Part shown: piece by piece, positions 2,430 to 3,107 of the stretch
How positions within the stretch are numbered: the first letter of the stretch is position 1
How the letters are laid out: every line of letters begins with the position of its first letter
From: Candidatus Krumholzibacteriota bacterium
Lineage (GTDB): Bacteria > Krumholzibacteriota > Krumholzibacteriia > Krumholzibacteriales > Krumholzibacteriaceae
Direction of reading: 5' to 3'
Assembly: GCA_041309565.1 (NCBI GenBank)
Contig: JBFYZJ010000278.1
Coordinates: 1 to 24,404, forward strand
Length of the DNA: 24,404 nt
Notes under the pieces: generated by a model
Told to the model about the DNA's origin: nothing
Databases searched by the model: none
Seen by the model: only the letters and a program-made list of their open reading frames with translations
Program-made: the position numbers and the translations under genes

Positions 2430-3107
2430 TTGAAGATTCGGAGAAAATCGATCGTCATGGACGCCATGCAGATTCACCGCACCATCATGCGCATCGCGCA
2501 TGAGATCGTGGAGCGGAACAAGGGGGTCGAGAACCTGATCCTCGTCGGCATCCAGAAGCGCGGCGTGCCGCTCGCCGAGCGGCTCGTAGGCGCCATCGAG
2601 CAGTTCGAGGGGGTGCGCGTCCCGGTCGGGGCGATCGACATCACGCTCTACCGCGACGATTTGCAGATGATCAGCCAGGTGCCGATCGTCGGCGAAACGG
2701 CGATCAAGGACGACATCACCGGACGCGTCATCATCCTCGTCGACGACGTTCTGTTCACCGGGCGGACCGTGCGCGCGGCGCTCGACGAGCTTATCGATTT
2801 CGGACGGCCGAGCGCGATTCAGCTCGCCGTGCTCGTCGACCGGGGCCACCGCGAGTTTCCGATCCGCGCCGACTTCGTCGGCAAGAACGTTCCCACCTCG
2901 CCGAACGAAACGGTCGAAGTGCTCCTGACGGAGATCGACGGCGAGGAGGAGGTCGTGCTGGGGGAGGTCGTGGAGGAGAGTGAACCGGCGCCAATCGAAC
3001 GGAAAGGAGTGAACATGCCCGCGAAAGCGAAAAAGAAAGTCGCCAAGAAATCCGCGTGCGGAACGAAGGCGAAGAAGACGAAAAAGGGCTGCGCGAAGAA
3101 GAAATAG
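2430..3107 (+). CDS. pyrR: Bifunctional pyr operon attenuation regulator / uracil phosphoribosyltransferase PyrR, with a Lys-rich C-terminal extension
   Basis: [33 protein letters not shown] (PRPP loop), [24 protein letters not shown] 2416-2422 precedes TTG 2430; 225 aa. Confidence 0.95.
3015..3107 (+). CDS. Possible separately initiated 30-aa Lys-rich basic peptide, in frame with the PyrR C-terminus
   Basis: AAAGGAG 3003-3009, 5 nt spacer, in-frame ATG 3015; [30 protein letters not shown]. Confidence 0.4.

Follow-up and report, generated by a model that had tools for sequence, protein, structure and literature searches.

A lysine-rich, disordered C-terminal tail on the pyrimidine regulator PyrR in a subclade of Krumholzibacteriota, with a conserved candidate start site at its junction

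In this study, we analysed pyrR, the first gene of a pyrimidine (pyr) operon, in a stretch of DNA from a Candidatus Krumholzibacteriota bacterium (GenBank assembly GCA_041309565.1, contig JBFYZJ010000278.1, positions 1 to 24,404 of the forward strand). The window, by which we mean this whole stretch of 24,404 nucleotides (nt), has 66% G+C, and its likely genes all lie on the + strand. The product of pyrR comprises an ordinary PyrR core, a short variable linker and a Lys-rich C-terminal tail that is a constant feature of one clade of this phylum. In addition, the end of the linker holds a Shine-Dalgarno (SD)-like sequence followed by an in-frame ATG, from which the tail might also be translated on its own. 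The features of the gene are as follows.

2417..2423, + strand: Shine-Dalgarno sequence of pyrR, GAGGAGG, with an anti-SD duplex energy of -12.5 kcal/mol
2430..3107, + strand: pyrR coding sequence, 225 codons in a single frame, with a TTG start and a TAG stop at 3105-3107
2430..2972, + strand: PyrR core, residues 1-181, with the phosphoribosyltransferase (PRTase) fold and including the terminal strand EVVLGE, delimited by alignment to PDB entries 4p81 and 1ufr and by the AlphaFold model
2973..3014, + strand: variable Glu/Pro-rich linker, residues 182-195 (14 residues), delimited by the ratio of nonsynonymous to synonymous divergence (dN/dS), per-base conservation and AlphaFold confidence (pLDDT, predicted local distance difference test)
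3003..3009, + strand: internal SD-like sequence AAAGGAG, lying within Lys-Gly-Val codons and marked out by its conservation in related sequences
3015..3017, + strand: in-frame internal ATG (Met196), a candidate nested start, 5 nt (TGAAC) past the SD-like sequence
3015..3107 including the stop (coding part 3015-3104), + strand: Lys-rich tail, residues 196-225 (30 residues, of which 14 are Lys and 2 are Cys), coinciding with the candidate nested open reading frame (ORF)

The start of pyrR in the first-pass annotation of this DNA is corrected here to the TTG at 2430, which lies 6 nt past the conserved GAGGAGG. This TTG was retained in all tailed relatives examined; the GAGGAGG ahead of it is kept in relatives of the window's own subclade, called Met-type below after the methionine at its junction, and is replaced in other tailed lineages by the close variants AAGGAGG, AGGAGG and GGAGG. 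The product is identical to a 225-residue database protein (P0001). It matched the PyrR equivalog model NCBIfam NF003549 over residues 5-178 with 248.9 bits (2e-74; cut-off 138), the model NF003547 with 234.4 bits (cut-off 230) and the Pfam PRTase domain PF00156 at 2e-21. Furthermore, the solved PyrR structures 4p81, 1ufr, 1non and 1a3c, with chains of 180-181 residues, aligned with the core from end to end at E values of about 1e-65, the last aligned residue being residue 177-179 of the query. With curated models exceeded at their cut-offs, full-length alignment, a type I PRTase fold, the phosphoribosyl pyrophosphate (PRPP) motif and a pyrimidine-gene neighbourhood, the core is identified by homology as an ordinary member of the PyrR family, the bifunctional pyr operon regulator and uracil phosphoribosyltransferase (UPRTase).

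The first-pass annotation had described a core of about 180 residues followed by an acidic linker and a 30-residue segment with 14 Lys and 2 Cys. The core and the basic segment are read directly from the sequence, and the segment is a real part of PyrR. The acidic linker has to be divided: about half of it (GEEEVVLGE) belongs to the last beta-strand of the core, which occupies residues 174-181 in an AlphaFold model built from a 46-sequence alignment and is supported by the PDB alignments, and only the remaining 14 residues form a linker. The true extension of PyrR thus consists of residues 182-225 (44 residues), that is, linker plus tail. Residues 188-225 carry a net charge of +15, and residues 183-225 were modelled without secondary structure at pLDDT values of 31-36, so that disorder is predicted for the whole region. 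The two Cys codons of the tail, both TGC, lie at 3057-3059 and 3090-3092.

The tail had also been suggested to derive from an H1/Hc1-like gene, and this family membership was not borne out. The 30-residue tail had no Pfam match at E values up to 1, no match to a described H1 globular, Hc1 or KPAA-repeat family was obtained, and a phmmer search of residues 180-225 (46 residues) against 1.84 billion representatives returned one low-complexity protein and no family, compositional filtering limiting this test. Because neither the Pfam search nor the exhaustive phmmer search placed the tail in a family, "histone-like" is a description of its composition and not a family assignment. Judged by these searches, the core is of a known family and the tail of no described one.

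Two sets of relatives were used to trace the tail. The protein set held the 120 top-ranking database clusters, with 63-100% identity to the query; 119 of them could be scored. The DNA set, drawn from species-representative genomes and Joint Genome Institute (JGI) metagenomes, held 45 tailed and 113 untailed loci. A basic C-terminal extension reaching 20-102 residues past the core was present in 118 of the 119 scorable clusters. Likewise, all 45 tailed loci, which come from independent assemblies, encode fused extensions of 36-127 residues with a net charge of +10 to +35; this charge is held throughout despite turnover of the sequence and, together with the lack of predicted structure, characterizes the extension as a disordered polycation. 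The nearest locus, whose protein is 97% identical, lies in a metagenome-assembled genome, and the surrounding matches are labelled Candidatus Krumholzibacteriia or Krumholzibacteriota. The 113 untailed loci encode ordinary PyrRs of 177-186 residues and include other Krumholzibacteriia as well as loci labelled Latescibacteria, Omnitrophota and Eisenbacteria. One tailed PyrR that groups with the Krumholzibacteriota (L017, DATKWS010000091.1) sits on a contig labelled 'Patescibacteria group bacterium'; either the label or the binning is probably at fault.

When 135 unique cores were placed on a neighbour-joining tree, the tailed proteins all fell into one clade, whose sole additional member (L033) carries a 10-residue basic stub. 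The clade is deep, with cores down to 63% identical. These results indicate that the tail was gained once, by an ancestor of a single subclade of Krumholzibacteriota, and has since been retained, invariably in fused form. Within the window's subclade, dN/dS was 0.09-0.38 for the tail at proportions of synonymous differences (pS) of 0.2-0.78, 0.03-0.26 for the core, and about 0.2 to 1.9 for the linker in most pairs, from which we infer that the tail is under purifying selection in the pyrR frame and that the linker evolves nearly neutrally.

The same data bear on two other accounts of the tail. On the first, it was produced by faulty assembly or a frameshift error, or this one genome lost the stop codon of pyrR only very recently; the first-pass annotation had proposed stop-codon loss as one origin and an assembly error as a point to be checked. 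The unusual look of the sequence is all that speaks for this account. The fused architecture recurs in the 45 independently assembled loci and 118 of the 119 scorable clusters, no stop separates core from tail in any of the 45, no relative has a stop before the internal SD, and selection acts in frame. Because the fused tail is conserved across loci, is selected in frame and belongs to monophyletic proteins, artefact and recent stop-codon loss are excluded, and we regard any such origin as next to impossible. The second account, an ancestral separate small basic gene, was rejected as well. A search of the 500 nt downstream of pyrR, in three frames and in the 113 untailed relatives, for a small basic ORF gave one match, which is probably spurious; because these relatives have no small basic gene next to pyrR, no trace of a fusion partner is left.

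In addition, the possibility that Lys-rich tails are a proteome-wide habit of these bacteria was rejected for the DNA available. No other Lys-rich stretch was found in the six frames of the window, in about 196 kb of other DNA from the tailed clade or in 447 kb from untailed relatives, the PyrR tail being the sole one.

The Cys pair of the tail is a further property of the Met-type subclade. Exactly two Cys, 8-11 residues apart, are present in the tails of 35 of its 38 protein clusters (in the range P0001-P0042). By comparison, 81 of the 119 scorable clusters have a Cys-free core, and 52 of the 80 other tails lack Cys, the longer tails of sister lineages being mostly Cys-free. This distribution would fit a tail, or a free tail peptide, that is metal-binding or redox-sensitive, for example through a zinc site with Cys4 coordination to which both tails of a PyrR dimer contribute. 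Against such a function, the tail contains no CxxC-type motif, AlphaFold predicts no structure for it, and some members lack one of the two Cys; we consider it improbable.

We then turn to the internal start. As the first-pass annotation had reported, AAAGGAG (3003-3009) stands 5 nt before the in-frame ATG at 3015, and this can be read directly; its description as a ribosome-binding site as strong as any in the window was too generous. The anti-SD duplex energy of AAAGGAG is -8.2 kcal/mol, which is mid-range, since the SD-bearing gene starts of the window span -8 to -12.5 kcal/mol, with -12.5 for pyrR and -11.3 for pyrB. The stretch from SD to ATG is largely unpaired in the centroid fold, and no conserved or sequestering RNA structure was detected around the internal SD, where the folding energy resembled that of shuffled sequence (z = 0.5). 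The site therefore combines an SD-like sequence at a working distance from an in-frame start with an accessible region. For the motif AGGAG-N4-9-ATG, 11 copies were counted in the window where 2.85 would be expected, and most of them are gene starts.

It is the conservation of the site, and not the bare motif, that exceeds chance in these comparisons. The Met-type subclade is monophyletic, spans 38 protein clusters with core identities of 73-100%, and has the junction [K/R]-G-x-x-M. In all 31 Met-type DNA sequences, A[A/G]AGG[A/G]G is followed by exactly 5 nt and then ATG. The junction Gly codon in these sequences is GGA in 26 and GGG in five, and never GGC or GGT; among the Gly codons of the window, GGC is the commonest and GGA makes up 14%, and AAA-GGA accounts for at most 1 of the 24 Lys-Gly pairs in the window's genes. 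Synonymous entropy at the junction Gly column is 0.39 bits, the lowest among 12 conserved Gly columns (0.62-1.82 bits in the others). The residue that follows is V, G, A or E, with a first codon base that is always G, and the next residue, in the spacer, is unconstrained. Indels flank the SD-ATG unit just before and just after it, and none falls inside it in any relative. Finally, per-base conservation reaches 95% in the SD motif, compared with a mean of 76% in the linker and 0.90 in the core. Purine-ending Gly codons in 31 of 31 sequences, fixed spacing and an island of conservation together suggest that the site is conserved beyond the needs of the protein.

A similar site was seen in a distant tailed lineage (L099, protein P0099), which reads 'ERRGVMARCGSKGK' at the junction of core and tail, with AAAGGAGG 6 nt before an in-frame ATG. 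Its resemblance to the site in the window may mean that a junction start is older than the Met-type subclade, or it may be convergent.

Several observations speak against a functional internal start. That tailed homologues should keep the SD and ATG, one of the points by which the first-pass annotation would have its proposal judged, holds in all 31 Met-type sequences and fails in three lineages nested in that subclade, which lost or altered the site and retained the tail: L006/P0024 and P0019 have neither SD nor Met and keep a fused tail, P0039 has Ser in place of Met, and P0032 has GTG, preceded at 8 nt by GGAG. An SD-ATG site at the junction is absent from most other tailed lineages. Lys, Gly and Glu codons are purine-rich and readily yield SD-like strings, and three other in-frame internal AGGAG-N6-9-ATG sites occur in ordinary genes of the window, at 11425-11438, 15795-15811 and 19896-19912, within genes for an epimerase/dehydratase, a UDP-N-acetylglucosamine (UDP-GlcNAc) 2-epimerase and hemC. 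Moreover, two further conserved Gly columns are nearly as invariant in codon use as the junction column, and the sequences are related, with about eight independent lineages among them, so that the weight of the codon statistics is suggestive and not decisive.

These points are in keeping with an alternative in which the tail functions within PyrR and the internal SD and ATG are unused, either as a by-product of purine-rich Lys, Gly and Glu codons together with a Met and a Lys-Gly pair kept for protein reasons, or as a relic, in slow decay, of a small downstream gene that was fused to pyrR long ago. What this alternative explains less well is that a 7-nt motif, an exact spacing and an ATG are kept amid a nearly neutral linker, that the third base of the Gly codon is always a purine, contrary to codon bias, and that the residue after Gly shifts chemically while its first base stays G. 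The relic version would in addition call for the fusion partner of which the untailed relatives hold no trace. We regard an unused site as a plausible account that falls somewhat short of an even prospect.

For the internal start itself we put the chances of real use at about even; if it is used, it is an accessory and dispensable feature of one subclade. Because three nested lineages lost or changed the site and kept the tail, what stays constant is the fused tail, to which the nested start can be no more than an accessory. At the same time, because the linker holds a conserved SD and ATG, the 30-residue tail is probably also translated alone at some level. A stronger proposal, which we hold only tentatively, is that pyrR contains, at its 3' end, a genuine nested gene in the same frame, giving from ATG 3015 a 30-residue polycationic micropeptide with a Cys pair that would be independent of PyrR, under the same attenuator, and would act in trans as an RNA chaperone, a polyanion binder or a competitor tuning tail-dependent RNA binding. 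The nested arrangement could also represent a stage, still preserved, on the way to joining pyrR with a gene for a small basic protein or to separating the two.

The setting of pyrR in its operon provides the likely RNA partner of the protein. The gene is the first in the operon pyrR-pyrB-pyrC-(TPR/YfiO-like)-pyrK-pyrD-pyrF, all on the same strand, and the order pyrR-pyrB is found in every listed relative with called genes. Two further features matter here.

2313..2397, + strand: pyr leader, with the predicted binding-loop hairpin CCUUUUAAUCUGGCCCGGGAGGCCAGGAAAGG and then an intrinsic terminator, CCCACCC...GGGUGG plus U8
3207..4157, + strand: pyrB, with the Pfam domains OTCace_N and OTCace

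The minimum free energy fold of the leader gives both the binding-loop hairpin and, directly after it, the terminator, and, as the letters themselves show, the 3' half of this loop could pair with the 5' side of the terminator, in line with the attenuation logic of PyrR in Bacillus. The leader scored 30.2 bits against Rfam RF00515, and those of relatives 36-41 bits; because these scores are under the gathering score of 54, standard annotation would miss the leader, and no Rfam model matched anywhere in the window at gathering thresholds. Binding loop and terminator are almost identical base for base across both tailed subclades and occupy the same position in L001-L026; at 39 of 40 tailed loci, a T-run was found after the binding-loop motif. 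The distance from binding loop to U-run is 34-49 nt at these 39 loci (median 41), compared with 36-88 nt in untailed relatives (median 66). We interpret the pyr leader of the clade as a compact PyrR attenuator in which the terminator follows within about 40 nt of the predicted binding loop. Because this distance is short, PyrR would have little time to bind.

It would be tempting to conclude that the tail co-evolved with a compacted leader. This idea was rejected for want of independent evidence: the correlation is confounded by phylogeny, the tailed loci being a single clade whose closest untailed relatives also have short leaders. It also counts as a point against the mechanism proposed below.

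In the attenuation logic of Bacillus, bound PyrR favours the terminator. By analogy with other basic tails on RNA-handling proteins, the tail most likely serves as an electrostatic tether that holds PyrR to RNA during attenuation at the pyr leader, which is conserved. The acidic, Pro-rich and variable linker would join the PyrR core to the disordered polycationic tail, which would act as a non-specific electrostatic tether for RNA; with the tether, PyrR would capture the hairpin of the nascent leader faster and with higher affinity in the approximately 40 nt available ahead of the terminator decision, an effect that the acidic residues nearby may dampen. In the Met-type subclade, the SD and ATG would additionally yield the free 30-residue tail with its Cys pair, a product nested in frame and subject, like PyrR, to attenuation in response to pyrimidines. 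Taken as a whole, this reading, a normal PyrR core with a once-acquired disordered polycation as RNA tether and a subclade-specific nested start, is the one that we favour, with moderate confidence.

An alternative role of the tail is that its target is not the pyr leader RNA but some different polyanion, such as nucleoid DNA, polyphosphate granules, ribosomes or anionic membranes, and so localises or sequesters PyrR and its UPRTase activity rather than tuning attenuation. Across the clade it is the composition of the tail that is conserved and not its sequence, as expected for non-specific charge interactions, and the literature offers analogies in AlgP with polyphosphate granules (PMC9239181) and in the tail of RNase R (PMC4176180). 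In contrast, the PyrR family already binds RNA, and its predicted RNA target is strictly conserved beside the gene, at 39 of 40 tailed loci. Furthermore, because no second protein in 220 kb of these genomes bears such a tail, there is no sign of a general localisation tag. On balance we find a different polyanion unlikely, and retain attenuation at the leader as the preferred role.

Other features of the window deserve brief mention. The pyrR-pyrB spacer (3108-3206) could form an extended, G+C-rich hairpin of about -60 kcal/mol, which stops just ahead of the pyrB SD; its energy was no better than that of shuffled sequence, and no second PyrR site was detected in this spacer. The genes past pyrB matched the Pfam domains DHOase, DHODB Fe-S, DHO_dh and OMPdecase, corresponding to pyrC, pyrK, pyrD and pyrF. 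Between pyrC and pyrK, inside the operon, lies a TPR/YfiO(BamD)-like gene (5495-7117) whose ORF overlaps the end of pyrC and whose C-terminus is encoded by tandem 15- and 45-nt repeats (6899-7091) with ADTxRADTLRAGPAP-like units. Downstream of the pyr genes come transport, polysaccharide, hemC, serS and two-component genes; among the last, a histidine kinase gene (21439-22734) is directly followed by a gene (22757-24310) that joins a response-regulator receiver domain to a PglZ domain.

PyrR is a textbook RNA-binding attenuator whose architecture of about 180 residues is regarded as invariant, and here an entire clade within an uncultured phylum has extended it by a tail that is under selection. 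The tailed PyrR constitutes a natural experiment in which a charged, disordered appendage is set against a kinetically controlled riboregulatory decision, and simple biochemistry, with the protein with and without its tail on an 85-nt RNA, would suffice to test its effect. If the internal start is used, this would also be a clear case, from bacteria, of a regulator gene that contains an in-frame nested micropeptide. For annotators, the consequence is that metagenomic "PyrR" entries of 215-314 residues are not mis-called genes.

When compared with canonical PyrR, as represented by the structures from Bacillus subtilis (1A3C), B. caldolyticus (1NON) and Thermus thermophilus (1UFR), the protein described here is alike in its core from end to end, in being encoded by the first gene of the pyr operon and in having a leader with a predicted PyrR-type binding loop and a terminator. 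However, solved and typical PyrRs end at 179-183 residues (199-201 in two mycobacterial entries), whereas the PyrR of the window has 44 additional residues and about +15 of additional charge, and its leader is more compact than the Rfam model, with 30 bits against the 54-bit gathering threshold. No description of a tailed PyrR was found in the searchable literature.

In-frame internal starts have been mapped in Escherichia coli with retapamulin (bioRxiv 10.1101/520783), and two-polypeptide phage endolysins produce a C-terminal fragment alongside the full-length protein (PMC9430671). The pyrR site resembles these in having an SD and a start inside an ORF, a shared stop and a position at the linker before a C-terminal module. 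It differs in that the module is a disordered peptide of 30 residues and not a folded domain, in that initiation is inferred from conservation, and in its loss from some close relatives.

As a polycation, the tail recalls the Lys-rich, H1-like proteins of bacteria, of which AlgP of Pseudomonas is one and chlamydial Hc1 and the C-terminal tail of mycobacterial HupB are further examples. The likeness lies in a low-complexity, disordered and Lys/Ala-rich polycation that serves on, or as, a polyanion binder. The PyrR tail differs in bearing no family relationship to these proteins, in its length of only 30 residues, in its conserved Cys pair, and in being carried by an RNA-binding regulator and not by a DNA-binding protein. 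Association with polyphosphate granules, as considered above for the tail, is the context in which AlgP has been discussed (PMC9239181).

The closest functional analogy is offered by tails of the RNase R type. These are basic, unstructured C-terminal appendages on an RNA binder, thought to act as non-specific tethers to RNA or ribosomes, and DEAD-box helicases have basic tails as well. The core protein is a different one, and the PyrR tail is likened to them by analogy only. In RNase R, the Lys-rich C-terminal tail has been considered in relation to ribosomes (PMC4176180); in PyrR, a comparable appendage would most likely serve the capture of a single conserved leader RNA.

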